Below are positions 1,426-23,788 of a DNA stretch of 38,941 nt, one piece after another. Position numbers and translations under genes: made by a program. Each line of letters begins with the position of its first letter. Positions within the stretch are counted from its first letter, which is position 1. The notes under the pieces were generated by a model. It did not search any database. It worked only from the letters and a program-made list of their open reading frames with translations, and was not told the DNA's origin. Source of the DNA: a virus (taxonomy: Duplodnaviria > Caudoviricetes); IMG/VR virus record IMGVR_UViG_3300043567_000557, positions 1 through 38,941 of that record; one strand, given 5' to 3'.

Positions 1426-2403
1426 TTACGCGACGATTGTGTTCCAGAAGTAACCGAGGTCTGACGCGATTACCTTGTTATCAAACGCCATTTCCGCTTC
1501 AATGCGGTCAGACTTGATTGATTCCATACGGAACTGTGATGTTCCGATAGTTGCACCTAGTCCGCCTGATACGCCAGTCCATGAGAATGTGTATCCAGCA
1601 GAAGGTGTCAATAGTCCAGGCTGAGGAGCAACATGGGTAAGCAAAGCGCCCTTGCCATAAGCAAAGCCGTATGCGCCTGTTGCGCCTTCGTTGTTTGTAG
1701 CCTTAACAGCCTTCGCAACCATGACGCGTGGGATGTCGAACATCGCCGCAATCATGTCTGTTGTGATTGTCTGTGAAGATGTGTACTTAATACGGTCTAC
1801 CAAGTCAGGGTGGTTCTTAAGTGACTTGAATGTGTCGTATCCGAGTACAAGAGTGTTTGCTTCCATTCCTGTGTTGCTAAGAATCTCAGCCTTACCCTCT
1901 TCAATATCAGAAATTGGGTCTGATGATGTGTAATCTGACCATTGAAGTGTCTGACCTGAAGTTGGTGATGAAGCAACGCCTGTTACATCGTTTGCCCATA
2001 CGCCTGTTGTGAAGAAATCAGAAACAAACTGAAGTTCACGACGAAGCATCAAACGACGAGTTACGAACTCTGTTGCCTCGCGTAGTGGGTTCAAAGGTGC
2101 ATCTGCGTTAGCAGTTGTTTGGTCGTCTACATCCTTGTGGAAAGCCCATACATCTGCTGAGTATGTGCCTGTTGATAGGTTGTATCCGCCACCAGCAGAT
2201 TCAGTTCCAGGCGCACGGCGTTGAGCCTCATCGCGGAACCAATCATTCTTGGTGTAAGTAAAGTACTTGTCAGACTTCTTATCCACAGGAATTACTGGGA
2301 ATACCTTGTCTGCAATGAAGTTGTCCTGATTTTGTAGATACGCAACTGAGATGTTTGTCAGAATCGCATCGACATGGACGCTATTGATGTTTGGCTGTGG
2401 CAT
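1426..2403 (-). CDS. Major capsid protein
   Basis: 325 aa; N-terminal VHVDAILTNISVAY...FIADKVFP pattern typical of this capsid family; follows scaffold and decoration genes and precedes a terminator. Confidence 0.85.
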   Translation of the reverse strand: MPQPNINSVHVDAILTNISVAYLQNQDNFIADKVFPVIPVDKKSDKYFTYTKNDWFRDEAQRRAPGTESAGGGYNLSTGTYSADVWAFHKDVDDQTTANADAPLNPLREATEFVTRRLMLRRELQFVSDFFTTGVWANDVTGVASSPTSGQTLQWSDYTSSDPISDIEEGKAEILSNTGMEANTLVLGYDTFKSLKNHPDLVDRIKYTSSQTITTDMIAAMFDIPRVMVAKAVKATNNEGATGAYGFAYGKGALLTHVAPQPGLLTPSAGYTFSWTGVSGGLGATIGTSQFRMESIKSDRIEAEMAFDNKVIASDLGYFWNTIVA

Positions 2404-2816: not shown

Positions 2817-3611
2817 TTAGGCACCTTTCTCGGATAGGTATTGGCTGTAAAGGTCAGGGTTTTTTGTAGCGACATCAGCGAGCGCTTGCTCGAATGACTT
2901 TGCTACACCCTCTTCAACGGCTGACTTAGCAAGCGTAGTCATACGCTCATAAGCATTGCCTGATTTGAAGTCCGCAGATTTGCCGATTTCTGCAAAAATA
3001 TGGGCTGATTCAGCCTGTGCATTAACTGAAGAAATAATTTCTTCGAGTGACTTGGCGAGGTCTGCATCTGTTGATGCCAAACGACGAAGCGCTGGTCCAA
3101 CTTTGTCTGCATCTAGGTTGAGGTTAGCCCAACCCTTCGCCTTTTCGATTGCTTCTGCATCTGCCTTGGCTTCGCGCTCTTTGCGAAGTTCTTCAGTTGC
3201 ATCAGCCGCTTGCTTACGCAAGTCCTCAATCATCTTGACTACTGGCTCAGGAGCGGACTTCAAGAAGTCCTCTTCTACGGTCTCTGACTTCGACATTTCC
3301 ATCTCTTCTTCTTTTGTATCATAAGAAGCGAGTTTGGATTCAAGGTCTGCAATTTTCTTCATTGCATCCTCTAGTGTCATTTCAGCCTTTTCGACTTCGA
3401 CCTGCTCATCAGTAGCCGTGGTAGTTACTTCATCCTGAGTTACTTCAGGCATGGATTCCTCCTCGGTGAGCGTTTCGTCCAAGACTCTCTGAACTTCAGA
3501 TTCGTCGGCTGATTTCATAACCAGCCAACCTTCGTGTAAGTGTGCGGGATGGTCTACGCCGCTTGTTTCTTCGATGGCTAGATTCACCATCTTGCGGGTT
3601 TTATTTGCCAA
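2817..3611 (-). CDS. Capsid scaffold protein
   Basis: N-terminal LAIEETSGVDHPAH (EvS.VD.PA motif associated with XkdF-type head proteins), acidic coiled coil, C-terminal NPDLYSQY; TTG at 3611 fits the AGGAG RBS better than GTG 3617. Confidence 0.7.
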   Translation of the reverse strand: MANKTRKMVNLAIEETSGVDHPAHLHEGWLVMKSADESEVQRVLDETLTEEESMPEVTQDEVTTTATDEQVEVEKAEMTLEDAMKKIADLESKLASYDTKEEEMEMSKSETVEEDFLKSAPEPVVKMIEDLRKQAADATEELRKEREAKADAEAIEKAKGWANLNLDADKVGPALRRLASTDADLAKSLEEIISSVNAQAESAHIFAEIGKSADFKSGNAYERMTTLAKSAVEEGVAKSFEQALADVATKNPDLYSQYLSEKGA

Positions 3612-3629
3612 TGTCACTCCTAACGAACA

Positions 3630-3716: not shown

Positions 3717-3983
3717 TTAGAGATTAGTTAAAACCCTCGTTTTGTGAAGAGCATCAGGGAGGGTGTTTGAAACTGACATTGCAAAAGGATTGTCATTAGC
3801 CCAAAAGCGAGCAACTCTGAAATGGAAGTCATTATCGTCCATCTTTGACCACACAAAAAAGGCTTGGGAATCGTTGGGCAAGATTACTTGAATTCCAGCA
3901 AACCCAGGCGGGGTTGATACCTTGCTAGTCCTTAGATTCATACCGTTAAGAATCTCAACGGTGCAATCAATGATTGTTTTCAT
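3717..3983 (-). CDS. Hypothetical protein
   Basis: 88-aa ORF; its start overlaps (ATGA) the stop of the start-less frame 3980..4219. Confidence 0.6.
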   Translation of the reverse strand: MKTIIDCTVEILNGMNLRTSKVSTPPGFAGIQVILPNDSQAFFVWSKMDDNDFHFRVARFWANDNPFAMSVSNTLPDALHKTRVLTNL

Positions 3984-4219
3984 CGTTTGTTTCGGGCAGG
4001 TGGGCGAAGGATGTCCATGTCATCCATCCACTTTGGGTCATCGGCATTATTGTCGAACTCACCCTCGGTGTCGTTATCGTCGTACTTAATTTTAGGTTTT
4101 TTATCTTTGTAATTTTTTGGCTCTGAAGAATCTTCGCCCTCTGAGTCATCGGTGTTGTATTTTCCACCATGAACTTTTTGGTCGTGTTGGGCGCCTAGAT
4201 GCTTGTCTAGGCTTAGGCT
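3980..4219 (-). CDS. Start-less -1 frame extension of 4213..4617 carrying a KHxxxxHDQKxHG tag and acidic/basic tail
   Basis: SLSLDKHLGAQHDQKVHGGKYNTDDSEGED...PPARNKR*; no start codon after the upstream in-frame TAA; A7 slippery run plus hairpin at the junction; ATGA coupling to the next gene. Confidence 0.65.
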   Translation of the reverse strand, partial: SLSLDKHLGAQHDQKVHGGKYNTDDSEGEDSSEPKNYKDKKPKIKYDDNDTEGEFDNNADDPKWMDDMDILRPPARNKR

Positions 4220-4617
4220 TTTTTTAGTGTTGAAACCTTATGTCCAACTTTTGTTTCAGTTGGCTTTCCATCACGGTACAACTGAATGAGAGCCGCTGGG
4301 TCATCTTCAGTTCCTTCAATTGTAAAACTTGAATCAGGAACATTGATTTTACCTTCACGCACAATGCGGACAACTTTTCCTGATGCGGTGCCACCTGATG
4401 AATTCCAAGAAACCATGTCACCTGTTGATACTGAAAGAGCCTTTTTCATTGAATAAGCCATATCACGCATAGCCTTTTCAATCATAGACTTTGCATAGCC
4501 TTTTAGACCTGAAATTCCTTTGTCAGAAACTTCTTTCTCAATCATTGAGTATTCTTCGTCCTTCATATTTTTCATAGGACCAAGGCGAAGTTCTTTGAGG
4601 ATTTTCATGTCTTTCAT
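4213..4617 (-). CDS. Head-region protein with DUF2945/Hva1 Tudor-like domain
   Basis: GDMVSWNSSGGTASGKVVRI...EDDPA...KVGHKVSTL. Confidence 0.65.
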   Translation of the reverse strand: MKDMKILKELRLGPMKNMKDEEYSMIEKEVSDKGISGLKGYAKSMIEKAMRDMAYSMKKALSVSTGDMVSWNSSGGTASGKVVRIVREGKINVPDSSFTIEGTEDDPAALIQLYRDGKPTETKVGHKVSTLKKA

Positions 4618-5318
4618 TTGGTTTCCTTCTTCTTTTTCTTAGGTTTCATAATTGTATCAACATGAACATCGGTAACAGTTGGGTCGTTCTTTTCCATGTC
4701 CACATATAGGCGCTCTGCTCGTCCACCAATCGAATAGCCAAGAATCTCGCCTCGTTGAATCTTCTCCCATGCCCAATCCTCCCAAATAACACCAAGAAAA
4801 ACTGTGTGTGGAGGATAAGTATGATTCACTTCAATTCCACTAGGGGTAGTAATTGGAACTGTTAATTCATATGGGAATGACATAACTTCAACCCATTCAC
4901 CAGCAACAATCTCACGATTATGTTGCAATCGAATTCGTCGGTCATTAGTACGAACATAATCCCAAACTGCTCTTTGTAGTTCGTCCGCATCTGTCCACTC
5001 ACCATGAGCATCAATACGGTCAGGGATGTACATGGCTCCTAGTGTGTAGCGCTTATCGCCTTCAGCCTTTTGAACCTCGTAATTACCAATTGATTTTGCC
5101 AACTCTACAAACGCTTCAGGAAAGATTTGTTTAGCAATCTCGACTGTTATCTCATCGTAATCAGATGAGCCTTGGGTTAGTACCTCGACAATACGCTCTG
5201 AAGGCGTCCATGAGCCATTAGCCCATAACTGCTCAGATATTGTCTTGGGTGTTTCTAAATCAAGCCTGTAAAGGGCTACGGGCTGATTTTGGTTGTCCAC
5301 TCTTACGAAATAACGCAT
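4614..5318 (-). CDS. XkdF-type prohead serine protease with an extra ~70-aa N-terminal domain
   Basis: YIPDRIDAHGEW, RLQH, VEVM, WEKIQRGEILGYSIGG motifs; start re-assigned to MRYFV (ATG 5318, AGAGGAGG RBS). Confidence 0.8.
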   Translation of the reverse strand: MRYFVRVDNQNQPVALYRLDLETPKTISEQLWANGSWTPSERIVEVLTQGSSDYDEITVEIAKQIFPEAFVELAKSIGNYEVQKAEGDKRYTLGAMYIPDRIDAHGEWTDADELQRAVWDYVRTNDRRIRLQHNREIVAGEWVEVMSFPYELTVPITTPSGIEVNHTYPPHTVFLGVIWEDWAWEKIQRGEILGYSIGGRAERLYVDMEKNDPTVTDVHVDTIMKPKKKKKETK

Positions 5319-7537
5319 ACCGCAACTCCTCCTCTCATGAACCATAGTTTATCAACCCCAGTTGATTTAAGCAAGCCAGCCTGTTGAGCGGTCTCAAATT
5401 GCTGGACTACTAGGGTTCCGATGGTCAGCAACTTAGCGGTATTGGATGGACGAGGAATTGCTTTTGCAATATCAACCATCTTGTCCCATGAACTGCGTCG
5501 GACTGAATCATCCTTAGCCTCACGGTAAACCTGATACTCGTTATGTAGTTCTTTCTCTTTAACTGAGTGAGACTTTGGTGTGTGGACCTGAAGTTCGACT
5601 GTCACGCCGTCCTTTGTAGCCTTGATATTAGTTCCGTCGTAAGGGTCACCTGACTGCCAAAAGTTCTTAACGCGAAGTTGCCATCCAGTTGCTTCAAGAG
5701 CATTGACTGTACTTTCAAGACCCTGTGTGTAGTTTTCTTCTCCAACTGCCATGGTGTATCGAAGCGTATCTGAAACTGAAGCGCTCGCTTTTTCTTTATC
5801 GCCACCAAATTCTTTTTCTGCATCTGCATCAATTTTGCGAGCAAGCGAATCTGTTGATTTGACTCTTTGCTCAAGACCAATCAACTCTCCACCACTTTGA
5901 GCAACAAGACTCTTAACCAAGTTTGTAACTGTTGGCTCAACTGCAAGAGCGCGTTCACGAAGAGATGTAGCAAGTGCAACTGCTTCAGGTGAACGAGATG
6001 ACTTAGGCGCAACATCTTCAGCAAGACCAGTCGATACTGAGTTGTTAGCCCAACTTCCATGTGTTGCTTGGTCATGTGTGCCATGCTTTTCAAGTGGTTG
6101 CCATATCAAACTTTTCTTTGCTGGGGCATCGATAGCCTGACCTTCAAAACCATTTTTTGTAGCCCAGTCACGGGATACAGAAAGCGCCTCTTCTGCTGTT
6201 ACCGATAGACGGTAAACTGGTAACTTAGTCCCAGGATTATCAAAAGCAAAGCCGACTGATGCGCCCCATGTATGGTGACCATCAATAACAAAACCGTCGC
6301 TTGAAATCAAAATTCTTTCATCTTGAGGAATTCCACCCTCTTCACGGAATTTGTTGTAGATAGCACCTGAACGAGAAGATGAAATTTCTTTCTGAATAGG
6401 CTTGAGTTTTGTTGGGTCTACTTCTTCGGCGGTTGCAGTCACACCTTCAGATTTTTCAATCTCAGATAGAAAACGAGCGCGTTCTTTTCCAGGAATTTGT
6501 GGCATATCTTTTCGAGCAATACCCATTCCCTCATCACCAAATAAAAGTGTTCCATCAACACTCAACTCAGTAAGGTCAGGGTGGTCTGTTCGCTTTGCCG
6601 CGCCCATAAGAAATGCCGAAACATTCTCAGCCTCAACATGAGGATGCTTACCATCCAGCATTGCTTGAGCAATATCATCTGCCCAAGAGCCATGAGTTTT
6701 TTGGTCATGCTGACCTTGGTTATGTTTTGCAACTTCTTCTTTTTCAGCGCGAGCAACCATAGACTCAGCCCATGCGAATCCCGCATCTCCACCCCAAGCA
6801 TCCCAAGCAACTCGACCTGCGGATGGAAAACCTTTTTCGCCTTGGCTAAAACCAACTGCGTTCTTATCAACTTCGTGACGAGAGAAGAAAGACTTCATTC
6901 GTTTTAAGGTGTCTAGTGAAATGTTTTCACCTGATGCCAACTGTGATGCACGACGGCGACCAACTGAAGTAAATCCGCTTCCAGCCTTGCCATCTGCAAT
7001 CCAGTCAAGCGCACGACGCGCCGCATCTCGAACTGCCTTTGGAGGAGTGTTGTCTGCCTTTGAGAATCTTTCAATTTGTGCAAGACGCTCTTCAGCCTTT
7101 TTCTTTGAAGGATAGGTTCCGAACTTTCGTGTTCCCGTTGAATCGTAAACGGTGAACTTGCCATCCTCTTCACGAATCATCTTTTCCATAGGGTCAGACT
7201 CGACTGGCTCGATACGCATTTCATAGCCGTTTGAAGTTAGGAAAGTTTGGACATTGCCAATGTTTGTTCCAGCGGACTTAATAACATCATCAACCATTTC
7301 GGCTGGCAAGGATGAGCCAAGAGAAGTCAGGTCTACATCATTGATTGAATCAACAAGAATCTCGAACTTGTCCCATTCATCGACAGGGCGCTCCATCTTT
7401 CGTCGAGCCATCTCATTAAGAACTGTGTGGTGAACCTCGATAGTCGCTGGAGAGGCTTCAGATTTATGAATACGGTCATGAAGCGCTGTAAGTTGTTCAG
7501 CGCTGAGTGAGATTAACTTAGGAGCAATATCCGCCAT
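5303..7537 (-). CDS. Modular head-associated polyprotein: unknown domains + tagged ParB/Srx-like domain + tagged RelA/SpoT-type alarmone synthetase
   Basis: ParB-like LKPIQKEI...ISSDGFVIDGHHTW; SAS motifs RVKSTDSLARK, DTLRYT, YDGTN, VELQVHT; two HDQxTHGSW tags. Confidence 0.75.
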   Translation of the reverse strand: MADIAPKLISLSAEQLTALHDRIHKSEASPATIEVHHTVLNEMARRKMERPVDEWDKFEILVDSINDVDLTSLGSSLPAEMVDDVIKSAGTNIGNVQTFLTSNGYEMRIEPVESDPMEKMIREEDGKFTVYDSTGTRKFGTYPSKKKAEERLAQIERFSKADNTPPKAVRDAARRALDWIADGKAGSGFTSVGRRRASQLASGENISLDTLKRMKSFFSRHEVDKNAVGFSQGEKGFPSAGRVAWDAWGGDAGFAWAESMVARAEKEEVAKHNQGQHDQKTHGSWADDIAQAMLDGKHPHVEAENVSAFLMGAAKRTDHPDLTELSVDGTLLFGDEGMGIARKDMPQIPGKERARFLSEIEKSEGVTATAEEVDPTKLKPIQKEISSSRSGAIYNKFREEGGIPQDERILISSDGFVIDGHHTWGASVGFAFDNPGTKLPVYRLSVTAEEALSVSRDWATKNGFEGQAIDAPAKKSLIWQPLEKHGTHDQATHGSWANNSVSTGLAEDVAPKSSRSPEAVALATSLRERALAVEPTVTNLVKSLVAQSGGELIGLEQRVKSTDSLARKIDADAEKEFGGDKEKASASVSDTLRYTMAVGEENYTQGLESTVNALEATGWQLRVKNFWQSGDPYDGTNIKATKDGVTVELQVHTPKSHSVKEKELHNEYQVYREAKDDSVRRSSWDKMVDIAKAIPRPSNTAKLLTIGTLVVQQFETAQQAGLLKSTGVDKLWFMRGGVAVCVIS
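5346..5374 (-). promoter_or_regulatory. Internal sigma70-type promoter with AACCCCAGTT operator, driving the protease gene
   Basis: TTGCTT-17 nt-TAAACT; operator at 5354-5363 inside ATCAAC-N4-GTTGAT palindrome. Confidence 0.55.
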
Positions 7538-7568
7538 GTTGCAATGATAGCGGATTACTTTCTAACTG

Positions 7569-7715
7569 TTATTTAGTTTCCTCAACCGAGGTTAGATTCT
7601 CTGCAACAATCTTATCTAAAATAGCAATCTCTTGGTCGCTTGGGTTGCCCTCATAATCTGAAGGCATGGAAGCATCGATTCTTGCTATGGCTTGAAGTCT
7701 CTGCTCTCTGTTCAT
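7569..7715 (-). CDS. Small protein (48 aa), candidate partner/immunity of upstream GNAT module
   Basis: Manual: MNREQRLQAIARIDASMPSDYEGNPSDQEIAILDKIVAENLTSVEETK*; ATGA overlap with upstream stop. Confidence 0.55.
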   Translation of the reverse strand: MNREQRLQAIARIDASMPSDYEGNPSDQEIAILDKIVAENLTSVEETK

Positions 7716-9613
7716 GGTGATGAGTTTACCGTAGGAGCGGGCTTTTCGCGAGCGGTTCCGTCGTAGACCAATCCATCGCCATCTCGGTCAATTGGTCCCT
7801 GATTGATGGTTCGACCTTCTTGGGTTAGACCCTTGCGATACTTTAGGTTCAAATCGGCTAAAAGGTCTTTACCTGCCCATGTGTACTCGGGCTTACCTAA
7901 ATCGTTTGTTCCCGATTGAGTTCTGCGACCATAGCCAATCATCGCGAAATCGTTAGGAATTGGGAAATTATCTTCTCTGATTTCTTTTACTGATGAGTAG
8001 CGAATACCTGACTCAGTAGATTCATAGTCATTAACTGCCCTACTCATAACAGCATCGAATTCTTCGCGTTCAGGAGTACCAAACTTTGCCACATCATAAA
8101 CTCCCGAACTGACCCGTCGGGCTATTTCTCTAATACTGCCATCAAGATACTGAGGATTAAAGTCGAATCCCGCTCTAGCCCAATGTCGAGCGCCATCCCA
8201 TGCTGTTCCAACATTGATTGCATCAATTTCCTTAGACACATAATATGCCTCTTGCTGGGCAAGGAACTTGCCTCCAAAGCCTGAGCCACGGTATTCATCA
8301 GCCATGCGTAGTAAGTCATGTTCCACAACTAAAATTTCATTACCATCATCATTTGTTTCTTTGTAGAAACTTCTCTGAAACTCTCCAGCAAAATTACCAT
8401 CTGAGTCAGTAACTTGACCTTGAATTACCAAGCGCTCGCCATCTCTATAAATATTAGTTGTTGATGAATCAAGAGTGGTCGTTACATTTCCAGCATTATC
8501 GGTAACATCATGGCTCATTCCATAAACCTCATCAAAGAAGCCATGTAAATCTTCAGGGTTAAATTCACCCCCGCCATTCTCTTCTTGCCACAATTGAGCA
8601 AGAGTTCCATCATCGCCATCGATAAATTCTTGAATCATCTCATCTTGAATTTTTTCGTACAAACGATTTCTTAATTCTTCATTGGCTTTGGCGTTAGCCT
8701 CTGCATCCTCGTACTCATACTTTGCCTCTTGAAAAGCCTCTTCGACTCTTTCATCAATTCCCTCAGTTGCTTGGTCATAAAGCCCTGAATCATTATTGAC
8801 CATCATTTCTAAATCTGAAGTATCAGGCTGTTCAGCATCAACTAATGCGTTCAAAATATCTTCTTTAGATGGACCCATCGTACTCATTTGGTCAATGAGT
8901 GCTTCATCTTCAGCAGAGATTCCACGCGCCCAATTACCATGGGTTGCTTGGTCATGCGTACCGTGCTTCAAGACAGGGATTAACCCCGCCTCAAAACGAA
9001 TTACTTTGAGGGCTTTTCCAATTTTGCCCAAAGTTGCTGGGCGTATTGTTCGATTTCCTCGTCCGTCATCTTCGAGATGTCGGGTAGTTGTACTACCTCG
9101 AGTTTTTCCGACATTACCTGTTCCTCCTGTTTCTATCTCAGCAAAGTTAGCGACATCCCAAATTGAGATTTGGTCGCGTTGAGCGCCGAGAGTTCTAGCA
9201 GTATCTACATCCTGAATGTTTTCAGATATGTCGAGATACACCTGTCCGTCGTCCTTATTATGCCATAAACCGAGGTAGTTTTTCCCCGTTGCAAGGTCGG
9301 ACTTATTTTTCTTCATGTAATCAGCAAGAATCTTTGGACCCTTTACTGGGTCATAGAAATCAGCCTCGCTCGCGATTGAACCGTATTGTGAGCCTTTAGC
9401 GACCATATACCCGCTAGTAGGTTCAGACCCATCTACCATGTTCACCGAGAGTCCACCATTGGCTTTAACGCGCTCTAGGATGCTTGAGGCGACGCCTTCT
9501 CCCATGCTGGCTCCAGTAGCCCAATTGCCATGAGTCTTTTGGTCGTGAGTTCCATGCTTTTCGATGACAAGTGATAATCCTTTAGGGGAGTCGTAGACAA
9601 AATTCTCAATCAT
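7712..9613 (-). CDS. Modular head-associated polyprotein: tagged unknown domain + tagged GNAT acetyltransferase-like domain
   Basis: GNAT motif A EYRGSGFG and GARHWARAGFDF; two KHGTHDQxTHGNWA tags; start re-assigned to ATG 9613 (GGAGG RBS). Confidence 0.7.
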   Translation of the reverse strand: MIENFVYDSPKGLSLVIEKHGTHDQKTHGNWATGASMGEGVASSILERVKANGGLSVNMVDGSEPTSGYMVAKGSQYGSIASEADFYDPVKGPKILADYMKKNKSDLATGKNYLGLWHNKDDGQVYLDISENIQDVDTARTLGAQRDQISIWDVANFAEIETGGTGNVGKTRGSTTTRHLEDDGRGNRTIRPATLGKIGKALKVIRFEAGLIPVLKHGTHDQATHGNWARGISAEDEALIDQMSTMGPSKEDILNALVDAEQPDTSDLEMMVNNDSGLYDQATEGIDERVEEAFQEAKYEYEDAEANAKANEELRNRLYEKIQDEMIQEFIDGDDGTLAQLWQEENGGGEFNPEDLHGFFDEVYGMSHDVTDNAGNVTTTLDSSTTNIYRDGERLVIQGQVTDSDGNFAGEFQRSFYKETNDDGNEILVVEHDLLRMADEYRGSGFGGKFLAQQEAYYVSKEIDAINVGTAWDGARHWARAGFDFNPQYLDGSIREIARRVSSGVYDVAKFGTPEREEFDAVMSRAVNDYESTESGIRYSSVKEIREDNFPIPNDFAMIGYGRRTQSGTNDLGKPEYTWAGKDLLADLNLKYRKGLTQEGRTINQGPIDRDGDGLVYDGTAREKPAPTVNSSP

Positions 9614-10583
9614 TGACGACCTCCACATCCCATACTTTTCCGCGCTGAGCGACCACTCTGAATTTACTGTTACGACCCATTAAGAATTCCGCCTCAGTCG
9701 TATCAGGAGTCCATCCATTCAAAGGCTCATGGTAGCCAGCAGGAAAGATTCCCTTCGTGCCAGCGGGTAATTTCATACGAAATACTAAACCATCGTAATA
9801 TGGTTGTGAACCACCAAATTGCTGAGCAACCCCAGCATCAATAGTTGTCGATGTATAGCCTTTATCTTGCCATGTATCGCCGACTTTTAGTTTGTCAAAG
9901 AAATCTAAACCATTTCCCTTAACTCCTCTGTAAGCAACTAATTCTTCAGAAAGAGCAGGTGCGGTTTCTATTGCTTTATCAAGCGAATCAATTGTTCCTT
10001 TATATCCATCATCACTTATTTGAGGGTCTCTTAAAGCCTCATTCATGTGATAACCACCAGCACTCTGATAGAAACTTATTGCCTGTGTGAATTCAGGATG
10101 AGCCAACTCGGTAAAACCTTTTAACCGTTGGCTAAATAGTTTCTCCATGAAATAAACTTCTCGTTCGGTCTCAGAACCAAATACTTTTACTTCATCTTTG
10201 TACCAGTCAGAAAGATTCTCGTAATTGCCTGAAGCCCAGTTTCCGTGGGTCTTTTGGTCATGGGAGCCATGCTTCAAAACTTCTTCTTCATCGCGAACAA
10301 AAGGAACATCATTAAATAAATTATGGAAAACAACTCCTAGGTCAGCGCCTTTTCTAACCACATGAGGTTCTATCATTTTGACCTCAATGACTGTAAATGT
10401 TTTTGGCTCTTGTCTAACCCAAGAATTAACTGTGATGTCTTGACCATCTTTAACTCCACTAGGCTGACGGTCATTTGTGTACTTTAGCGTGGCAGTTTCG
10501 ATTTTAGCAAAATTTCCAGTATTGGCTCCGTTTTTGATTATGTCATAACGGGCTTTTCCCTTTGGGTATCTACGCTGTCCCAA
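9606..10583 (-). CDS. VIP2/Alt-like ADP-ribosyltransferase module (probably the 3' half of one gene 9606..11377)
   Basis: Y...GYHMNEALR, VAYRG, DKGYTSTT, EAEFLMGR (R-S-ExE); preceded by KHGSHDQKTHGNWA; TTG start lacks an RBS. Confidence 0.8.
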   Translation of the reverse strand: MGQRRYPKGKARYDIIKNGANTGNFAKIETATLKYTNDRQPSGVKDGQDITVNSWVRQEPKTFTVIEVKMIEPHVVRKGADLGVVFHNLFNDVPFVRDEEEVLKHGSHDQKTHGNWASGNYENLSDWYKDEVKVFGSETEREVYFMEKLFSQRLKGFTELAHPEFTQAISFYQSAGGYHMNEALRDPQISDDGYKGTIDSLDKAIETAPALSEELVAYRGVKGNGLDFFDKLKVGDTWQDKGYTSTTIDAGVAQQFGGSQPYYDGLVFRMKLPAGTKGIFPAGYHEPLNGWTPDTTEAEFLMGRNSKFRVVAQRGKVWDVEVVND

Positions 10584-11377
10584 CTTAAATCATTCGGGTC
10601 TTGAATTCTGTATCCAGTTTGTCCGTCCCTTGATTCAAAAGTTCGAGCGTGAGTTGCTCTCCTAGACCAATAAGGGACAGTTACTTCAGACTTTCCAACT
10701 ACCTCAAATTTACCGCTAGTAATAGTTTCAAAGTCTGATGGGTACCAACTTTTTTCAGGATTGACTGATACTCCCTTTGCGCCTTCTTGAATTTTAAGAA
10801 TTACTTTTGTGTCATTAGGAGCGTATGACCTATCAACTGCATACCATTGAGCAACTCCAAGGGAGCGAGTTGTTGAAACCATAGGCATATCAATTGTGTC
10901 GCCTTCTTCAAGATTTGTGAACTTTTCAAGAAGCGCTCTCGACTGCTCATCACTTGCCGCGATACCTCGATACAAAGTTGGTTGTGGTCGTCCATTGGCA
11001 ATTGCATTAAGAACTGCTTCAGTTTGTTTTCTTACCGTTTCAGTAGAAGAACCGCCGAATCCACGCTGAGTTAAATAATGCTCAGAGCCACCAACATCTT
11101 TGTCACTTTTGGGTACTGGTAAACCAAGCATCTCCCCTGCATATTGACGGTATAAATCTACAAATTGGTCGCCATCAACTCCATGTTCCCAGTTATCCCA
11201 AAACTTTTCAGTAGTTCCTGTTGCATTACGGGGAGCATCAGGAACTTTATCTTTTGGGTTCCAATTAGTTAATTCTGTTGTAACACCTTTTGCCCAATTG
11301 CCGTGACTAGATTGGTCGTGTTCTTGATGTTTTACAACAGGTCGAAGCCCAGCCTCAAATTTAATTGTCAGACTCAT
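10538..11377 (-). CDS. Divergent ADP-ribosyltransferase-fold module with N-terminal tag (5' half of split gene)
   Basis: TLYRG, MVSTTRS, ILKIQEGAKG, DFETITSGKFEV; KHQEHDQSSHGNWA at residues 15-28. Confidence 0.65.
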   Translation of the reverse strand: MSLTIKFEAGLRPVVKHQEHDQSSHGNWAKGVTTELTNWNPKDKVPDAPRNATGTTEKFWDNWEHGVDGDQFVDLYRQYAGEMLGLPVPKSDKDVGGSEHYLTQRGFGGSSTETVRKQTEAVLNAIANGRPQPTLYRGIAASDEQSRALLEKFTNLEEGDTIDMPMVSTTRSLGVAQWYAVDRSYAPNDTKVILKIQEGAKGVSVNPEKSWYPSDFETITSGKFEVVGKSEVTVPYWSRRATHARTFESRDGQTGYRIQDPNDLSWDSVDTQREKPVMT

Positions 11378-12381
11378 AATGTTCTCTCAGGTGGAACTAT
11401 GACCATCGCACAACGGCAGTTAGGGTGAACAACTGGTTTTTCAAGACCAATAGAAAATAAACCATTCCAAGGAACAATTTCACCATTCAAAGGAGCGCAT
11501 ATATCGCAAGTACGCTCATCTAGGGCTGTCACCCACATCTTCATTGCTTGAGGGTCTACAAATCCCGCTTCGTTGGCTTGCTTCCAGCCCTCGTAACGAC
11601 CTTCGTTCTGTGCAATCTGAATCTCTGTGCGAGCAATCATGGTTGCTCTTTTGCTCTTTAACTGGTCTGCATATCGTGATGCTCGAGCCTGTGCATTGCG
11701 TCGAGCAGTAGCCTCTTTTTGACCTGCTCGCATAAGACGGGCAATCTCAGCCTTTTCATACTTGATAACTGCATCTGCCCACTTTGGATGAAGTCCAACA
11801 ATATTTTTAATTCGCTGTGCTGTTGCTCGAACATCTATCTGCTCATTGAATGAATCGGTAATAATCTTTCGGATGGCGATACGAGTTAATTCATCAATGC
11901 TCTGAATCAACTCACCAGCGCGAGTAGATGCAAAGGCTAAAGAGTTTGGGTTTGTCTTATTAAAAGACATTGAGAAATCAACTTTGGCAGGTGTAGGTCT
12001 TGCCCAATTAGGAACTTGAGTAAAATCCATGTTCGCCATTGGAGACTTGTTTGTAATCTTTACTGGCTTAGGTATAAATGCAGGAAGGGCTAACTTCGGA
12101 GCAATAGATTGAATCTGTTGGATGGCTTCAGTACCACCCATATCAATTGACTCTAAAAGAGTTTGTTCGATATTACGGCGATTGCCACCAACTGAAATGG
12201 CATTGAGCAAACGGTTGAGAGAATCAGGGTCGAGGCGCTCGATGATACGAGCCAACTCTTCAACCTTAATCTTGTCTGTTGCTTTACGGATTGCATCATA
12301 AAGAACTCTCGCTAATGCTTGCTCTTCGGCTGTTAGCGGATTCCGACGAGGAGCATCTGCCTTTCGAAATTTGAATGGCAT
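11374..12381 (-). CDS. MuF-family head morphogenesis (minor capsid) protein
   Basis: MIARTE, KMWVTALDERTCDIC, HPNCRC motifs; immediately after portal. Confidence 0.9.
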   Translation of the reverse strand: MPFKFRKADAPRRNPLTAEEQALARVLYDAIRKATDKIKVEELARIIERLDPDSLNRLLNAISVGGNRRNIEQTLLESIDMGGTEAIQQIQSIAPKLALPAFIPKPVKITNKSPMANMDFTQVPNWARPTPAKVDFSMSFNKTNPNSLAFASTRAGELIQSIDELTRIAIRKIITDSFNEQIDVRATAQRIKNIVGLHPKWADAVIKYEKAEIARLMRAGQKEATARRNAQARASRYADQLKSKRATMIARTEIQIAQNEGRYEGWKQANEAGFVDPQAMKMWVTALDERTCDICAPLNGEIVPWNGLFSIGLEKPVVHPNCRCAMVIVPPERTL

Positions 12382-12384
12382 TGC

Positions 12385-13806
12385 TTACTCCTCATCGCCG
12401 ACAAACGGTTCCGTTCCTTCGGGAATATCTAATCCTAATTCGCCAGGCTCAAGAGGCTCTTCTGTACCTTGAGGCGCAACATCGCCTTCAGGCATTGGAG
12501 GCATACCGTAATTAGCACCATCGTGTTCAGCAGGTGGAAGTCCAGCCAACTCGCGTAGGTAATCTTCCAAGTTAGGGTCAGGCATCAAGACACCTGCTCC
12601 AGCCAACTTGCTTACGAAGTCTGAAATCTCGGTCAAATCAACATGGCTTACTTCACCATAAGTTAGATAAGGAGCGCGAGATGTATCCATGCCGTTTAAC
12701 TTTAATAGGCGAGGAATTGCGTACTGATTCATTACCTCGGCAATGTTTTTAGCAATTGAATCAACCGCCATTGACCATAAATCCATCTTTGATGTACCAA
12801 GTGCATATGAGCCAACTCGGTCTGAACCTAAAAGAATAAAGTCAGAAAGAATTGACATAGACATACGCTGGTCATAGCGCTGAATAATCTTGTCTGTGTC
12901 GAACTGGCGTGAACCGCCTGATGACATTAACTGAAGGTCGAATAACTTATGCCCTGCATCATCGTAGATAGATGGCATAACAATGCCCTCTTGCTCATTA
13001 CGCTTGATAGAGGTGACAATCTGTTGAATGGATGCAAGAACCGCTTGCTGTTCAGCGGTAGCCGCAGAAGATAAATACTCAGGTGGTACAAATGCAACTG
13101 GCAAACCTGCTAAGTCGCGCTCAATACCAATGGCTTCAATTTCTTCAATACGACGCTTGAAGTACCAAGGACGGTATGCGTTACGAAGAATTGAGCGACC
13201 TTCAGGGTTATTCTTTTGTGAAGATGTACGGAATAGCAAAGCCTTCTCAATTGGAATCTGATGGAATCCACCGTTTGATGGGTCCATCTGAGAGAAACCT
13301 TGAATACCGCCGTCCTCATCAAAACTCCATTGGAACAAAGTTTCTTGAGCGCGAATAGGCATCTTGCGCCAACCGATTTTTCCATCATTAAACTTAGAGC
13401 GGGTCTTAGCATCGTTAGTATCGCCACCACGCTTTTTGTAAACAATCTCATGGTATGAATAACCAAAGATAAGCATTGAAAGCATTTGAGATAAAGTTGA
13501 ATCCCAAGAATCTGACATATCATGCAAGCAAGACTCTACGAATTCAGCCGTCTCTTTATCTTGTGGAGTTACATCACCATCGGCAGAATTATCTGAATAT
13601 GGGTCTACACGCCATTCAAGACGAGTAACAACTTTTTCGATAGCAAAGAGCATTGAACCGATAGTTGGGTCATTGTCAGACATCTCGCGATAAATGCGAG
13701 CGCCTCTTTGACCACGAAGGTTCGTGAGAAATTCTTCATAAACTGTTCCACCCGAACGGCGTAAACCAGTAGAACCAAGTTCTTGAAGGTCAGGTCTTTC
13801 TGCCAT
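12385..13806 (-). CDS. Portal protein (DUF935/Mu gp29-like)
   Basis: 473 aa, NPEGRSILRNAY.PW..K, EAIGIERDLAGLP motifs; upstream of MuF. Confidence 0.85.
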   Translation of the reverse strand: MAERPDLQELGSTGLRRSGGTVYEEFLTNLRGQRGARIYREMSDNDPTIGSMLFAIEKVVTRLEWRVDPYSDNSADGDVTPQDKETAEFVESCLHDMSDSWDSTLSQMLSMLIFGYSYHEIVYKKRGGDTNDAKTRSKFNDGKIGWRKMPIRAQETLFQWSFDEDGGIQGFSQMDPSNGGFHQIPIEKALLFRTSSQKNNPEGRSILRNAYRPWYFKRRIEEIEAIGIERDLAGLPVAFVPPEYLSSAATAEQQAVLASIQQIVTSIKRNEQEGIVMPSIYDDAGHKLFDLQLMSSGGSRQFDTDKIIQRYDQRMSMSILSDFILLGSDRVGSYALGTSKMDLWSMAVDSIAKNIAEVMNQYAIPRLLKLNGMDTSRAPYLTYGEVSHVDLTEISDFVSKLAGAGVLMPDPNLEDYLRELAGLPPAEHDGANYGMPPMPEGDVAPQGTEEPLEPGELGLDIPEGTEPFVGDEE

Positions 13807-13819
13807 GTTTGCCTCTCAC

Positions 13820-13975
13820 TTACTCTTTGCTGGCTAATCCAACGACAATTCTAATTGCCTGTTCTTCATCGAAACCAGCCTTTTTCAACTCCATGAATAA
13901 TTCATGTGACTGAATAGCAAATGCTCCTAGAACAGACACGACTCCATCACCATTGGGAGTAAAGTCGTTATACAC
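13820..13975 (-). CDS. Small hypothetical protein (51 aa), probably leaderless
   Basis: Manual: GTG start 6 nt after TATAAT; MYNDFTPNGDGVVSVLGAFAIQSHELFMELKKAGFDEEQAIRIVVGLASKE*. Confidence 0.6.
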   Translation of the reverse strand: MYNDFTPNGDGVVSVLGAFAIQSHELFMELKKAGFDEEQAIRIVVGLASKE

Positions 13976-14008
13976 CCGATGATTATAGCGCGAGTGAAAT
14001 TTAGGCTT

Positions 14009-14308
14009 TTATTCTCCGTCTAGGACAAATTCAAAAGAGTTAAGACGGAAAGTTGCAGTTTCCATTGCAAACTTTCGAGCCAAGTCTTTTGTTCCAGCCT
14101 GTGCATACTCACGCTCTTCAAGTAATCCACCAATCGCATCGAAGCGCTTGAAGATAATTTTGAATGGTAATTCAGTCTCGCTAGTGGTCAAATGAATTTC
14201 CACATACTCTTTCGGAGCAATCTCCATAGAAACATATGGGCGACCTTCAGGTGACACAACAGTTTTACCGTTTGGCAATGTGCCAACGAAAAAATCAGTC
14301 CAAGCCAT
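14009..14308 (-). CDS. Hypothetical protein
   Basis: 99-aa ORF with AAGGGGG RBS. Confidence 0.6.
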   Translation of the reverse strand: MAWTDFFVGTLPNGKTVVSPEGRPYVSMEIAPKEYVEIHLTTSETELPFKIIFKRFDAIGGLLEEREYAQAGTKDLARKFAMETATFRLNSFEFVLDGE

Positions 14309-14355
14309 TTCTTACCCCCTTCAGGATAATATCAACCCCTAGCATACAACATGGG

Positions 14356-14802
14356 TTAGAAAGGTGGCGCATCTTGAGCAAGTGGCGCACTCCATGGGTC
14401 GAACTCTGATACAGCGCTTGGTGGGTTATATGAGGCATCTGAGCGCTCAATTACTGGCACCGAGTATGTGTGACGCTTGAGGTCTGCTCCGACATTCCAT
14501 GCAGTAACCGTAATCTTTGAGCGCTTTTGCCCTGTGTTCTTATCATCCCAAGACTCTTGAACTGCCGTCCCTGAGACGATTACTGCAACTCCCTTACGGA
14601 GTGAATCGGCGACATTCTCAGCGGTCTTACCCCATACCTTGATGTCCCAAAAAGTTGTATCTGTATTTTCCCAAGTTCCGTCAGGCTTCTTGGATGACTT
14701 TGATGAAACTACTGTGAAAGTTGCTAATGCCTTAGCGTTCTGTGTGAACTTAAGTTCAGGGTCAGCAACTAGGTTTCCTGTGATTGTGATTGGTGCGCTC
14801 AT
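14356..14802 (-). CDS. ssb: Single-stranded DNA-binding protein, actinobacterial type
   Basis: ITITGNLVADPELKFT, WGKTAENVADSL.KG, C-terminal DPW...APPF. Confidence 0.92.
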   Translation of the reverse strand: MSAPITITGNLVADPELKFTQNAKALATFTVVSSKSSKKPDGTWENTDTTFWDIKVWGKTAENVADSLRKGVAVIVSGTAVQESWDDKNTGQKRSKITVTAWNVGADLKRHTYSVPVIERSDASYNPPSAVSEFDPWSAPLAQDAPPF

Positions 14803-15062
14803 GCTATGTGTCTCTCATTCGTGATTGGTTTGGCTATTATGTTTAGTTGTTTTCTTATTCTTTCGCGTTCTTTAGTTGATGTTCCGCCCCAAATACCGCT
14901 TACTCTGTAATGTAGAGCATAGGTCAGACAATCTTGCTTAACTATGCACCCACTACAAATCTTTTTTGCCTTTTTGTTTTCCTCCGTTACTGTGTTTGCT
15001 TCAGGAAAGAAAAAATCTGTATCAATCCCCCAGCAACTCGCTCCCTCGAAAGTCCATGGCAT
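14799..15062 (-). CDS. whiB: WhiB-family Fe-S transcription factor
   Basis: C-x21-CSGC-x4-DC with GIWGG turn and basic tail; start re-assigned to MPWTF. Confidence 0.88.
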   Translation of the reverse strand: MPWTFEGASCWGIDTDFFFPEANTVTEENKKAKKICSGCIVKQDCLTYALHYRVSGIWGGTSTKERERIRKQLNIIAKPITNERHIA

Positions 15063-15330
15063 CTTCAATCTCATCGTCTCCAACTTTTAATTGATTAGGG
15101 AAAGCATGGATTAACTTAGCCAAAACTTTTCCGTTACGCCATACCTTGCCTCCGCAAACTCCATCGAAGAAACTGGCTCTTGGTGCTACCCACTCATCGC
15201 AATTAGTCCAAAATGGACAGGTCTTACAAATATCAAGTGCAGGTCGAGCAAGGTCAATTTGATGTTGGTCAAATAACCACGGGTCTGAATTGCGACACGG
15301 GGCTTCATCAAGAAATGACACTAAACTCAT
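15022..15330 (-). CDS. whiB: Second, divergent WhiB-family protein
   Basis: APCRNSDPWLF, CKTCPFWTNC, GVCGG in place of GVWGG. Confidence 0.7.
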   Translation of the reverse strand: MSLVSFLDEAPCRNSDPWLFDQHQIDLARPALDICKTCPFWTNCDEWVAPRASFFDGVCGGKVWRNGKVLAKLIHAFPNQLKVGDDEIEDAMDFRGSELLGD

Positions 15331-15347
15331 GTTGTAATTGTGACAGA

Positions 15348-15488
15348 CTATTTACGAGATTTAGGGTAATCGACTCTTTCGCGTGTCGGATTTCCAAATC
15401 GTTCTTCAAGCAGTTTTTTCAAAAGGTCTTGTCGGTCTTGCTCAATCTTTTGGTTTGTCTGAATTATCTTTGAATCCAATGTCATCAT
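15348..15488 (-). CDS. Small hypothetical protein (46 aa)
   Basis: Manual: GGGAGG RBS, MMTLDSKIIQTNQKIEQDRQDLLKKLLEERFGNPTRERVDYPKSRK*; fills the gap. Confidence 0.4.
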   Translation of the reverse strand: MMTLDSKIIQTNQKIEQDRQDLLKKLLEERFGNPTRERVDYPKSRK

Positions 15489-15711
15489 CTGCCTCCCATG
15501 TTGCTAACGCGTGATGAACTAATCCCTTATGTCTCCAGTCAGGGTTATCATCATCAGCAAGTGTGAGCGTCCAATACTCTTTGTCACCCTCGCCCATCCA
15601 TTCAGATACCAAAACCCATCCCGTGCATATTGCAGGGTCTTGAAAGGCGATGCGCCCGATTTCGGCGAGCGCATCGTCAATCAATGAAGGTTTCTTGTTT
15701 TCCTCACTCAT
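15442..15711 (-). CDS. Hypothetical protein
   Basis: 89 aa, CTGWVLVSEW...PDWRHKGL; leaderless-type start. Confidence 0.65.
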   Translation of the reverse strand: MSEENKKPSLIDDALAEIGRIAFQDPAICTGWVLVSEWMGEGDKEYWTLTLADDDNPDWRHKGLVHHALATWEADDDIGFKDNSDKPKD

Positions 15712-15720
15712 GCGGTGAGG

Positions 15721-16179
15721 TTAGTACCAAAAATTTCTTTCCCAAAAACGCCACGCCGAGCAAGGTGACCCGTATCGAGATTCGACATAGACCAAGCCTC
15801 TTTCAATCTGACGCTCCACAGAAATATCGGGGTCTAATCCGAGAATCTGAGGAATCCCTCCAGCATGGAGTTTTTCTCCATTTTGGTATACGGGAGTTTT
15901 ATTGTAAGCATTAGGACGCCAGTTTGATTCCTTTGTCCACAAATCAATCAGACATTCCCATTGAATAGGAGTGTCCCAACCGAATTTAGGCAATTGAGTT
16001 TTGGCATAAACCTTTGATGCTTCAGGTGTGCGCTCGACTAATACAGGCACTTCCACAACTACTTCAACCGCTTGAGCAACTGGGTCAGGCGGAATGTGGA
16101 ACGGATTCAAAATGATGAATCCTAAAACGAGGATTCCTACTGGAATCGGTTTGGATAGAACTTTTTCATAGAATCGCAT
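15721..16179 (-). CDS. Membrane-anchored lytic transglycosylase (SLT/lysozyme-like)
   Basis: N-terminal TM; CLIDLWTKESNW (catalytic Glu), AGGIPQ, QIERGL.Y..SRYGSPCSAW. Confidence 0.8.
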   Translation of the reverse strand: MRFYEKVLSKPIPVGILVLGFIILNPFHIPPDPVAQAVEVVVEVPVLVERTPEASKVYAKTQLPKFGWDTPIQWECLIDLWTKESNWRPNAYNKTPVYQNGEKLHAGGIPQILGLDPDISVERQIERGLVYVESRYGSPCSAWRFWERNFWY

Positions 16180-16184
16180 ATTCC

Positions 16185-16292
16185 TCCATTGTTCGGAGCG
16201 AACTATTCGTCACTACTGGATGTAGCGCTTCCCTGTTGTCAGTATCGGACTGACCTCGCTTTTGAGGTGTAGGTGTTTTGCGAACCTGCATT
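16185..16292 (-). ncRNA. Candidate structured 5' leader RNA of transglycosylase gene
   Basis: Five consecutive hairpins between a TTGACA/TACCTT promoter-like pair and the GGAGG RBS. Confidence 0.4.
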
Positions 16293-16348
16293 AAAGGTAG
16301 CAGACTCTTCTGAATGATTGTCAAGGATATTTTTAACTAGAGTTGGGC

Positions 16349-16512
16349 GTTCGGTGGCGGAGCAGATAAGTCACGCTAGAGAGAGGACGGACGCGCAACG
16401 AAGCATCAACGCCACCGAACTATGGGTACCCGATAGGAATGGTACCTCATATGTAGCAATTCACCCACCGAGGTTTCATGTCCTTGCGGAAGAAAGTCTT
16501 TCGGTGGGTGAA
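16349..16512. ncRNA. Candidate structured small RNA(s)
   Basis: 11-bp stem 16349-16359/16410-16420, GGTACC hairpin 16425-16446, 12-bp stem 16460-16471/16501-16512. Confidence 0.45.
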
Positions 16513-16518
16513 CTCTAT

Positions 16519-16929
16519 TTAATCGAGGCGACTGCCAGCGCTCGCTTCAATTCCGTACTTACCAAGTACCTCAGCGAAGGCTTGAGCGAAAGCATATTTA
16601 CGGTCTACGCTCTGTCCGAATTCTCGAACCCAAATCTCGTAGCCTCCGTAATAACCCTTGCTACCGACTTGGCGAGACTTTAGGTAATTCACAAACGCAC
16701 CTCGCGCTGGAGAAATGTTTACCCAAGCAAACCCGCACAATCCGTCAAGGATGTATGTTTTCTTATTGAAATCAATGTCGCTTCCAAGTGGAGTAGTTGG
16801 AGAACCAACTACAAACTTTGGAGTATCTGCATCTTTGCCAGCCGCAAGACCAGCCTCGTATGCTTCAACATAAATGTTGTGGCATTGATTCTTTGTTAGT
16901 GCCTTTTTCTTTTCTGCTACTTGAGCCAT
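16519..16929 (-). CDS. Conserved-looking phage hypothetical protein
   Basis: GLCGFAWV, QSVDRKYAFAQAFAEVL, SRLD; own promoter and AGAGAGGGG RBS. Confidence 0.7.
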   Translation of the reverse strand: MAQVAEKKKALTKNQCHNIYVEAYEAGLAAGKDADTPKFVVGSPTTPLGSDIDFNKKTYILDGLCGFAWVNISPARGAFVNYLKSRQVGSKGYYGGYEIWVREFGQSVDRKYAFAQAFAEVLGKYGIEASAGSRLD

Positions 16930-16958
16930 TTTGTATCCCCTCTCTTGGTTACATAGTA

Positions 16959-16987
16959 ATTATATCAAACTAGGGTTTAATAATCAA
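16959..16987 (-). promoter_or_regulatory. Sigma70-type promoter with AACCCTAGTT operator in spacer
   Basis: TTGATT-17 nt-TATAAT; operator 16968-16977. Confidence 0.75.
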
Positions 16988-17131
16988 ATCCATTCGAGCC
17001 TTGCGTCGAGCGTGTCGTTTGTCCGACTCTTCAGCGAGCAACTTCTCGCGCTCTAGCCTACGGATACGGGCTAGAGAGGCTTCAGAGACCTTTAGAGGCT
17101 CTTTGAACTTTGTCCATGATGGAATTAACAC
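16970..17131 (-). CDS. Small basic protein (53 aa)
   Basis: Manual: GGGAGG RBS, GTG start; MLIPSWTKFKEPLKVSEASLARIRRLEREKLLAEESDKRHARRKARMDLIIKP*. Confidence 0.5.
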   Translation of the reverse strand: MLIPSWTKFKEPLKVSEASLARIRRLEREKLLAEESDKRHARRKARMDLIIKP

Positions 17132-17280
17132 TAGAACCACCTCCCGCTCTCAATTGACCCCACAATGCCGAAAACAAGCAATATGCCTAGGGCAAATACC
17201 GCTCCCTCAAAATTGTCTGCCCAGCGTCGCCCCTTAGCGGTCAGGCGAATACCCTTTTTCGCTAATCTCTCTTCTATCAT
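17131..17280 (-). CDS. Small membrane protein
   Basis: MIEERLAKKGIRLTAKGRRW + TM segment; start re-assigned using AGAGGAG RBS. Confidence 0.6.
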   Translation of the reverse strand: MIEERLAKKGIRLTAKGRRWADNFEGAVFALGILLVFGIVGSIESGRWF

Positions 17281-17414
17281 TATGCGCTCCTCTCTTTCTT
17301 TGGTCGAACTATTCCGTACTGCTCCATTGAAGCATCTGCCTCGCATCTGAAGCAATATGTTTTGCCTTTAATCATTGTTAGTCGTAATTCGCTACCGCAG
17401 GTAAAACATTTCAT
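17280..17414 (-). CDS. Small zinc-ribbon protein (44 aa)
   Basis: Manual: MKCFTCGSELRLTMIKGKTYCFRCEADAS...; coupled to both neighbours. Confidence 0.6.
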   Translation of the reverse strand: MKCFTCGSELRLTMIKGKTYCFRCEADASMEQYGIVRPKKERSA

Positions 17415-18912: not shown

Positions 18913-18931
18913 TGGGTCTCCTCTCATTTAC

Positions 18932-18967
18932 AACCCCAGTTTAGCATGATTTAGCCAATTGGTACAA
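18932..18967 (-). promoter_or_regulatory. Promoter with operator overlapping -10/+1
   Basis: TTGTAC-18 nt-TAAACT (TGn extended); AACCCCAGTT at 18932-18941. Confidence 0.6.
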
Positions 18968-19012
18968 TAGGAGCCTGTCGTGTCCCCGTGACCCCAGTTA
19001 AAAGGGTCAAAA

Positions 19013-21664: not shown

Positions 21665-21678
21665 GCCTGAAGTTTACC

Positions 21679-22209: not shown

Positions 22210-22230
22210 AGTTTCCCCCTCTCATAATCC

Positions 22231-22300: not shown

Positions 22301-22325
22301 CGGTATGTAAGAGAGAGGAGACCCC

Positions 22326-22789: not shown

Positions 22790-22814
22790 CATATTGTCTT
22801 AGAGAGGAGACATC

Positions 22815-23768: not shown

Positions 23769-23788
23769 AATAATAGAGAGGATGAAAG

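Follow-up and report, generated by a model that had tools for sequence, protein, structure and literature searches.

Each of seven protein modules in the head-gene region of IMGVR_UViG_3300043567_000557 (Duplodnaviria; Caudoviricetes) is opened by the same short peptide, K-H-x(2-4)-H-D-Q-x-x-H-G, referred to here as the His tag. The record is a 38.9-kb virus sequence, about 64% complete, and the window means its whole stretch of 38,941 nucleotides. The tag is a real, widespread and well delimited element, the K of which closes a [VILM]-x-K site that also recurs in the likely scaffold. We infer for it a mechanism in which the prohead protease would free enzymes that carry the tag at their new N-terminus, to be held in the head and sent out with the DNA.

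The seven copies all lie on the minus strand, where the first-pass annotation of the window had placed them and nowhere else in the contig, a profile search of which returned exactly seven matches. The chance expectation is 1.5e-5 (from residue frequency, in six frames), with 0 matches in 200 shuffles. The ending H-G-[NS]-W, which had been ascribed to the whole set, is present in six copies, followed by A, while the seventh reads H-G-G-K. A longer leader, I(K/R)FEAGLxPV(V/L)K, had been noticed in front of two copies and is indeed found at both places.

11330..11365, minus strand: leader IKFEAGLRPVVK, ending in a predicted cut site (FxxGLxP leader class, 30 of 184 leaders)
11291..11332, minus strand: tag 1, K-HQEHDQSSHGNWA (pattern and profile match)
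10233..10274, minus strand: tag 2, K-HGSHDQKTHGNWA (pattern and profile match)
9518..9559, minus strand: tag 3, K-HGTHDQKTHGNWA, behind an 18-residue leader from the ATG at 9613
8966..9001, minus strand: leader IRFEAGLIPVLK, ending in a predicted cut site (match to the longer leader)
8927..8968, minus strand: tag 4, K-HGTHDQATHGNWA (pattern and profile match)
6680..6727, minus strand: tag 5, K-HNQGQHDQKTHGSWA (pattern and profile match)
6047..6088, minus strand: tag 6, K-HGTHDQATHGSWA (pattern and profile match)
4157..4204, minus strand: tag 7, K-HLGAQHDQKVHG, without W (pattern and profile match)

Four precursors hold these tags, namely a protein with two ADP-ribosyltransferases (ARTs), a protein that joins an unknown domain to an acidic GNAT-like module, a 744-residue protein with ParB-like and RelA/SpoT-like modules, and an extended Tudor protein. 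Codons differ between the copies of the window, and the third codon positions of K, the three His and Q split near-evenly over 617 tag contexts, in agreement with the earlier view that conservation lies at the protein level. A DNA-level repeat was rejected, because codons differ and the residues stay fixed although synonymous sites vary almost at random.

Among the matches listed, the residue in front of the first His is K in 324 of 329 contexts, 271 of which have V, L, I or M at P3, the first scan pattern having contained no K. All 184 leaders end in K, with a median length of 22 residues, and no tag stands at a start codon; since a leader ending in K always comes before the tag, a His N-terminus could be generated only by a cut. 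The related site [VILM]-x-K-[ASH] occurs eight times in the likely scaffold of the window versus 1.2 expected from shuffles (0 of 2000 shuffles reach eight), and 131 times versus 23.6 expected in 21 scaffolds, an enrichment that is somewhat inflated because the P1′ set [ASH] was picked after viewing the sequences. Portal and MuF are near expectation, with ratios of 1.2 and 1.3, and two such sites stand in front of the prohead protease domain, which begins after EVQK. As the Lys site of the tags also studs the scaffold, the head protease likely cuts there, leaving the tag on the cargo. It has been established that gp21 of phage T4 cuts after L/I-x-E, trims the internal proteins and Alt, and removes a targeting peptide (PMC9026906), and giant-phage proteases likewise cut many head proteins (PMC10052503). 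Cleavage by the prohead protease after the Lys of [VILM]-x-K is predicted here with good confidence. The earlier proposal of a cut that would leave the tag at the new N-terminus is supported by comparison, the cut itself being a prediction. The same capsid type and a site-rich scaffold occur in four cultured phages (Ottawa, Laroye, ValentiniPuff and RDJL Phi 1), with no tag in the stretches fetched from them, which marks the tag as an accessory.

Within the tag, conservation is concentrated at a few residues. In 480 profile matches, the first His is conserved in 475, Q in 477, the last His in 479 and G in 472, and the middle His is present in 459, with Gly at its place in 16. The tag had been taken for a three-His element, a view that did not hold as an obligatory rule, given that G, E, D or Y replaces the middle His in 21 of the 480 matches and that further natural variants exist; in place of W there is often a basic residue, or W is missing. 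Modules of the clade without the strict motif carry a His variant, with the middle His or Asp changed, or, in one polyprotein, another opener. By this tally, which leaves aside truncated or mis-anchored rows, no module of the close relatives has lost its tag. Placed behind the same [VILM]-x-K site, the second opener, K-[YF]-x-x-D-Q-x-R-D-x-x-G-R-[WF], alternates with the His tag in five polyproteins (L253, L254, L491, P0061 and P0110). For 61 of 80 loci its place is a head module, and the modules that it opens are homologous in 43 of 117 cases. Both openers have DQ and G-x-W/F and serve the same module families, whereas the second starts with Tyr or Phe, contains an RD insertion and has at most one His. 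Their placement suggests homology, the stretch being too short for statistics. The second opener and the dispensable middle His imply that metal binding is not a principle shared by both openers, unless each of them acts in its own way, and metal binding through the first and last His is offered as a tentative prediction. Pfam models, including DUF7211, gave matches of four families with one member each against 83 His-tag stretches (best E 0.08) and a single match, at E 0.17, against 12 second-opener stretches, and a PDB sequence search with the tag gave no match. The motif is thus not part of an annotated domain in Pfam.

The variable positions of the tag behave as a dialect of each genome. 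They agree at 0.56 within versus 0.37 between 53 genome groups (permutation 0.35 +/- 0.01), the values for synonymous sites being 0.59 and 0.53. For 316 tags, whose pairs, like those of the whole dialect comparison, are not independent, variable residues agree at 0.545 for unrelated modules of one genome, 0.339 between genomes and 0.397 for distant homologous modules of different genomes, with synonymous sites at 0.57 versus 0.52. Tag variants that track the genome rather than the module point to a phage-encoded reader, and a putative partner encoded by the phage itself probably recognizes the tag. MuF was rejected as the universal reader, since 5 of 18 groups spanning portal to capsid have no MuF match (a distant MuF could escape).

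The tag is by no means restricted to this record. Pattern scans returned at least 238 (spacer 2) and at least 226 (spacer 4) stretches in IMG/VR, at least 234 in metagenomes, and seven stretches from six loci in the genome collection, and a profile built from 83 tags finds 881 protein clusters (50% identity), with a maximum of 20 tags per protein. Of the 65 locus groups among the matches listed that reach 2.5 kb, 54 contain a head gene by the markers used, and the other 11 comprise three short cassette contigs, three likely chance matches in bacterial records, three groups with head-type PHROG matches and two others. For the metagenomes, where 61 of 227 loci were long enough, the matches listed give a head gene in 24 of 28 groups, a cassette gene in three and neither in one. 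Wherever the context is readable, tags occur in head modules. Close relatives keep the frame of portal, MuF, tagged block, protease, scaffold and capsid while the modules are shuffled. The first-pass annotation had placed all tags between MuF and the scaffold, which applies to the window and its clade; outside the clade, tags are found on MuF and protease C-termini, between portal and protease, and behind capsid and adaptor genes. They occur with differing portal, capsid and protease families, XkdF-type and HK97-type proteases alike. Three actinobacterial contigs from metagenome-assembled genomes in the genome collection have real tags (L225 and L228, both in head modules, and L230), and the matches L226, L227 and L229 look like chance and were set aside.

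Regarding the cargo, the tag opens single-domain modules; 768 distinct modules with a median of 220 residues fall into 203 clusters. A Pfam scan that covered 82 of the 83 representatives derived from loci, and 54 of the 150 library proteins, matched four kinds of ART as well as PARP-like, GNAT, zeta kinase, Macro, Nudix, zincin and CCA/HD domains, most modules having no match. The notion of effectors arranged in polyproteins, with enzymes of biological conflict as cargo, is supported by this comparison. The arrangements range widely: a 1,885-residue polyprotein with eight tags and mostly ART modules lies behind a capsid gene (L046, 6447-12101), a 7,059-residue protein has 20 tags, 16 of them without the middle His (P0001), and in a 172-kb phage (L252, 213-12036) separate genes with one tag each, Macro and CCA/HD among them, stand in a row next to a minor head/DNA pilot-like gene.

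In the window, the enzyme modules and the elements that accompany them are the following.

10275..11290, minus strand: module 1, R-S-E type ART-like domain with an insertion; frame broken near 10,566 in the assembly
9606..10232, minus strand: module 2, Alt/VIP2-family ART (Pfam ADPrib_exo_Tox PF03496, E 2e-13; PHROG 3895 and 802)
9113..9505, minus strand: module 3, folded domain of about 130 residues, common in phages (pLDDT mostly >80; weak SAM lyase lead)
7712..8926, minus strand: module 4, acidic helical region and GNAT-like domain (best E 0.008, weak; RGSGFG motif)
7569..7715, minus strand: 48-residue open reading frame (ORF) behind the GNAT module, candidate partner (related small ORFs there in 35 of 37 junctions)
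6728..7537, minus strand: untagged N-terminal part of the 744-residue precursor, with further [VILM]xK sites (unnamed look-alikes only)
6089..6679, minus strand: module 5, ParB/Srx-like domain with a DGHH motif (weak call)
5303..6046, minus strand: module 6, RelA/SpoT-like small alarmone synthetase domain (SaSAS 8vx3, E 1e-23)
5100..5318, minus strand: domain of about 70 residues on the protease N-terminus, candidate inhibitor of module 6 (co-occurrence with module 6)
4218..4225, minus strand: A7-G run, likely -1 recoding site through which the Tudor protein is extended to include tag 7
3980..4156, minus strand: module 7, short acidic tail behind tag 7

These assignments agree in part with the first-pass annotation, whose calls of the second ART, the RelA/SpoT-like domain and the frameshift tail stand, whose first ART is supported by residues, and whose GNAT and ParB calls are weak. 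The first ART has no Pfam match, and the R, S-T and E of R-S-E type ARTs are invariant in 11 relatives. Near 10,566, contigs from two of four runs differ by an indel, and L014, L064 and L219 read through; the break is an assembly defect or a rare variant, and two separate ART genes were rejected in favour of one gene. Module 3 has 23 viral structure matches at E<=0.001, and cultured phages of Gordonia, Mycobacterium, Microbacterium and Rhodococcus encode uncharacterised proteins of the same fold. Its comparison with the Svi3-3 SAM lyase 6zm9 is weak (Z 2.7, rmsd 3.0, 64 aligned residues, rank 18 among unrelated rows), and Foldseek gave no match. Invariant in module 3 are G-x-W, Asp and Gln (G86, D99, Q119), set against G56, E69 and Q104 of SAM lyase (PMC7877911); compared without direct alignment, the Gly and the acidic residue 13 positions later are alike and the Gln spacing differs, which leaves SAM lyase as a weak lead. 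In unrelated phages (L001, L003), capsid-protease fusions carry one part of 6728-7537 together with the Tudor domain. For module 5, one tagged library protein elsewhere matches Pfam ParB_N at E 1e-4, and module 6 also matches the XopAD C-terminal region and has MuF-fused homologues in streptococcal phages. Sequencing error was rejected for the A7 run, which shows no indel in any of four runs and which leads to the -1 frame in 12 of 15 distinct junctions and stays in frame in three. The run in the Tudor gene is conserved as A7-A9, and ribosomal or transcriptional slippage both fit.

The tagged block is embedded in a head operon on the minus strand that runs from portal to MuF, the tagged block, an XkdF-type prohead protease, a Tudor-domain protein, the likely scaffold, a likely decoration protein and the capsid protein.

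12385..13806, minus strand: portal (Pfam Portal_Mu, E 4e-44)
11374..12381, minus strand: MuF, short form with no fused effector (Pfam Phage_Mu_F, E 1e-15; TIGR01641)
4614..5066, minus strand: XkdF-type (S78_2) prohead protease, beginning after EVQK (Pfam PF14550, E 2e-13)
4213..4617, minus strand: Hva1/Tudor-domain protein (Pfam PF11160, E 4e-9)
2817..3617, minus strand: likely scaffold, with eight [VILM]-x-K-[AS] sites (role from position; PHROG 13547 carries no function)
1426..2403, minus strand: major capsid protein (PHROG 1005, E 1e-103)

MuF of the window stops right after the HPNCRC motif, so that it lacks a toxin fusion, as had been stated; some relatives do carry fusions (L209, L246 and L262). 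Behind the acidic tail, an 88-residue ORF (3717-3983, minus strand) of no family is conserved in relatives. About 15 kb (13806-28918) separate terminase and portal, with genes for SSB, two WhiB proteins, a transglycosylase-like protein, a 748-residue lectin-like protein (19013-21259, plus strand), a histone deacetylase-family protein (23956-24882, plus strand) and a proteasome-subunit-like protein (24892-25452, plus strand). The phage also encodes an ERF recombinase, and Rfam and PADLOC searches gave no match. WhiB is a marker of actinophages (PMC6802176), and the best holders of related sequence are lake metagenomes, which suggests a lake virus of actinobacteria with a host placed at Actinomycetota.

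In 16 of 18 leader clusters that have at least three members, what stands before a tag goes together with the module that precedes it, an association to which fixed gene order contributes. The domain of about 70 residues fused to the protease is found in 19 of 19 loci that have module 6 upstream and in none of six without it; this domain is unnamed and has a single homologue of 36-118 residues. It occupies the place that IapK holds behind Apk2 in MuF polymorphic toxins (PMC12226406). Taken together, the behaviour of the leaders and the case of the protease domain indicate that the swapped unit is tag, enzyme and partner, exchanged at the tag. The peptide or small domain before each site may be a candidate inhibitor of the preceding enzyme, likely shed by the protease.

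The explanation that we lean towards on balance is that the precursors would enter the prohead, where the protease would cut after Lys and free each enzyme with the tag at its new N-terminus. The tag would then be a handle for a phage-encoded head part, which would hold the enzyme and send it out with the DNA into the next cell, and the partner or inhibitor in front of the next site would be dropped during maturation. The presence of tagged modules in the virion is a highly confident prediction. A role of the tag after the cut, and not in loading alone, is given a slight preference. A more general proposal, which we regard as rather doubtful, is a portable virion secretion signal. An N-terminal peptide unmasked by the protease, of which there would be two or more interchangeable versions, would be recognized by a lineage-matched head part and would suffice to bring any folded domain into the capsid and, along with the DNA, into the host, cognate inhibitors encoded ahead of the next cut site being stripped in maturation.

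Several observations weigh against this explanation, in addition to the inflated scaffold enrichment and the non-independent tag pairs mentioned above. Close homologous modules in other genomes share their tags more (0.77), and old gene conversion combined with synonymous drift could give the same dialect. The occurrence of the tag with unrelated portals, capsids and both S78 protease types, and also without MuF, does not sit easily with recognition by a single protein pocket. No head context is assigned for L287, L491 and one metagenome group. AlphaFold2 gave no secondary structure for a 32-residue tag stretch (pTM 0.17). Moreover, no tagged cultured phage was found by tblastn against 50,697 records with His-tag and second-opener queries of 23-32 residues, an insensitive search.

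The first-pass annotation had proposed a shared address tag for loading, which agrees with the head context and the polyproteins. In its strict form, where the tag binds the assembling prohead, several tags add avidity and nothing is left to do after the cut, such an address would also explain stand-alone tagged ORFs behind the capsid gene and without MuF, as well as genome-specific variants fitting a capsid-side partner, and T4 does use a 10-residue targeting peptide (PMC9026906). One tag per precursor would suffice for this purpose, yet every internal module keeps one, tags are kept on MuF or protease fusions, which enter the head anyway, and in T4 the address lies before the cut. Since internal modules and fusions alike retain the tag, a per-module role after the cut is favoured over a loading address alone, which we consider unlikely. 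It might be argued instead that the tag is just the prime-side half of the protease site, aiding the cut next to folded domains. The fixed register to Lys and a dialect that could co-vary with the protease would fit, but the sites in scaffold and protease go on with A or S and no tag, the same tag is found with XkdF-type and HK97-type proteases, and 12-14 residues is long for a prime side, so that this is very unlikely.

An autonomous metal- or DNA-binding mini-motif, freed by the cut, would need no protein reader to tie the cargo to packed DNA or to further cargo, and would work across unrelated head chassis. A free N-terminal His can bind metal, and almost no variation is seen at the first and last His, Q and G. 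Against this, both the middle His and Asp are variable, Tyr or Phe comes first in the interchangeable opener, which often contains a single His or no His at all, the charge of the tag is neutral to acidic, and a genome dialect needs a partner or conversion; we hold this possibility to be quite unlikely. Next to no credence is given to a tag that is mainly a recombination junction for cassette swaps, with enzymes acting in the infected cell or against grazing protists, although these ARTs have been read as Trojan-horse toxins against grazing protists (PMC6802176). Shuffling of modules exactly at the tag, leaders that follow the preceding module and the ERF recombinase speak for such a junction, while near-random synonymous sites beside fixed residues, a Lys site that matches that of the scaffold, and a cargo made largely of bacterial-target enzymes in late head operons speak against it.

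The cut-and-retained tag resembles T4 internal proteins and Alt in that a short peptide is common to unrelated head cargo, in the presence of an ART in the cargo, and in a prohead protease site of the form hydrophobic-x-P1 (PMC9026906). Unlike in T4, where the peptide lies before the cut and is removed, the conserved peptide here lies after the predicted cut and would stay, P1 is Lys, and the cargo is strung in polyproteins with one tag per module; the tag is C-terminal to the predicted site and never at a start codon, so it is no propeptide of the T4 type. Polyvalent proteins and effectors fused to MuF, portal or protease have been proposed to be packaged and injected, with processing by an assemblin-like peptidase suggested (PMC5512222, PMC9503650, PMC3482391). 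The window likewise encodes, along with virion and packaging genes, polypeptides with at least two conflict enzyme domains, and ART, GNAT, zincin, RelA/SpoT, zeta, Nudix and Macro domains recur in both systems. The junction here is a defined unit of site plus tag, whereas the accessible parts of those descriptions contain no linker tag or site. In common with MuF polymorphic toxins such as Apk2 with IapK (PMC5576092, PMC12226406), an effector cassette lies directly behind muf, and a homologous RelA/SpoT-like domain is followed right away by a small linked candidate partner; by contrast with the toxins as described there, MuF is short in the window, the effectors are several and separate, and the candidate partner is fused to the protease. 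A literature search that included literal motif strings found no description of the tag, in line with the earlier statement that no description of it is known, though Aravind-group supplements and subscription papers may list the motif. VENN-type junction motifs of CdiA and related polymorphic toxins also place a short peptide at the swap point before a variable enzyme and its partner; they belong to bacterial secretion systems and occur as one junction per protein.

How phages other than T4 pick, load and release injected proteins is a largely open question. With the site-plus-tag unit, domain borders can be recognized by a sequence rule, which also singles out candidates for injected proteins; the 203 module clusters, most of them without a Pfam family, can be mined directly for enzymes of anti-defence and host takeover. 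A test bed exists in cultured Arthrobacter phages that share the capsid type and the Lys sites and carry no tags. If true, a portable tag would be a handle for protein delivery, and the VIP2-like ARTs of freshwater actinophages may be read as head cargo aimed at the bacterial host rather than as toxins against grazers.

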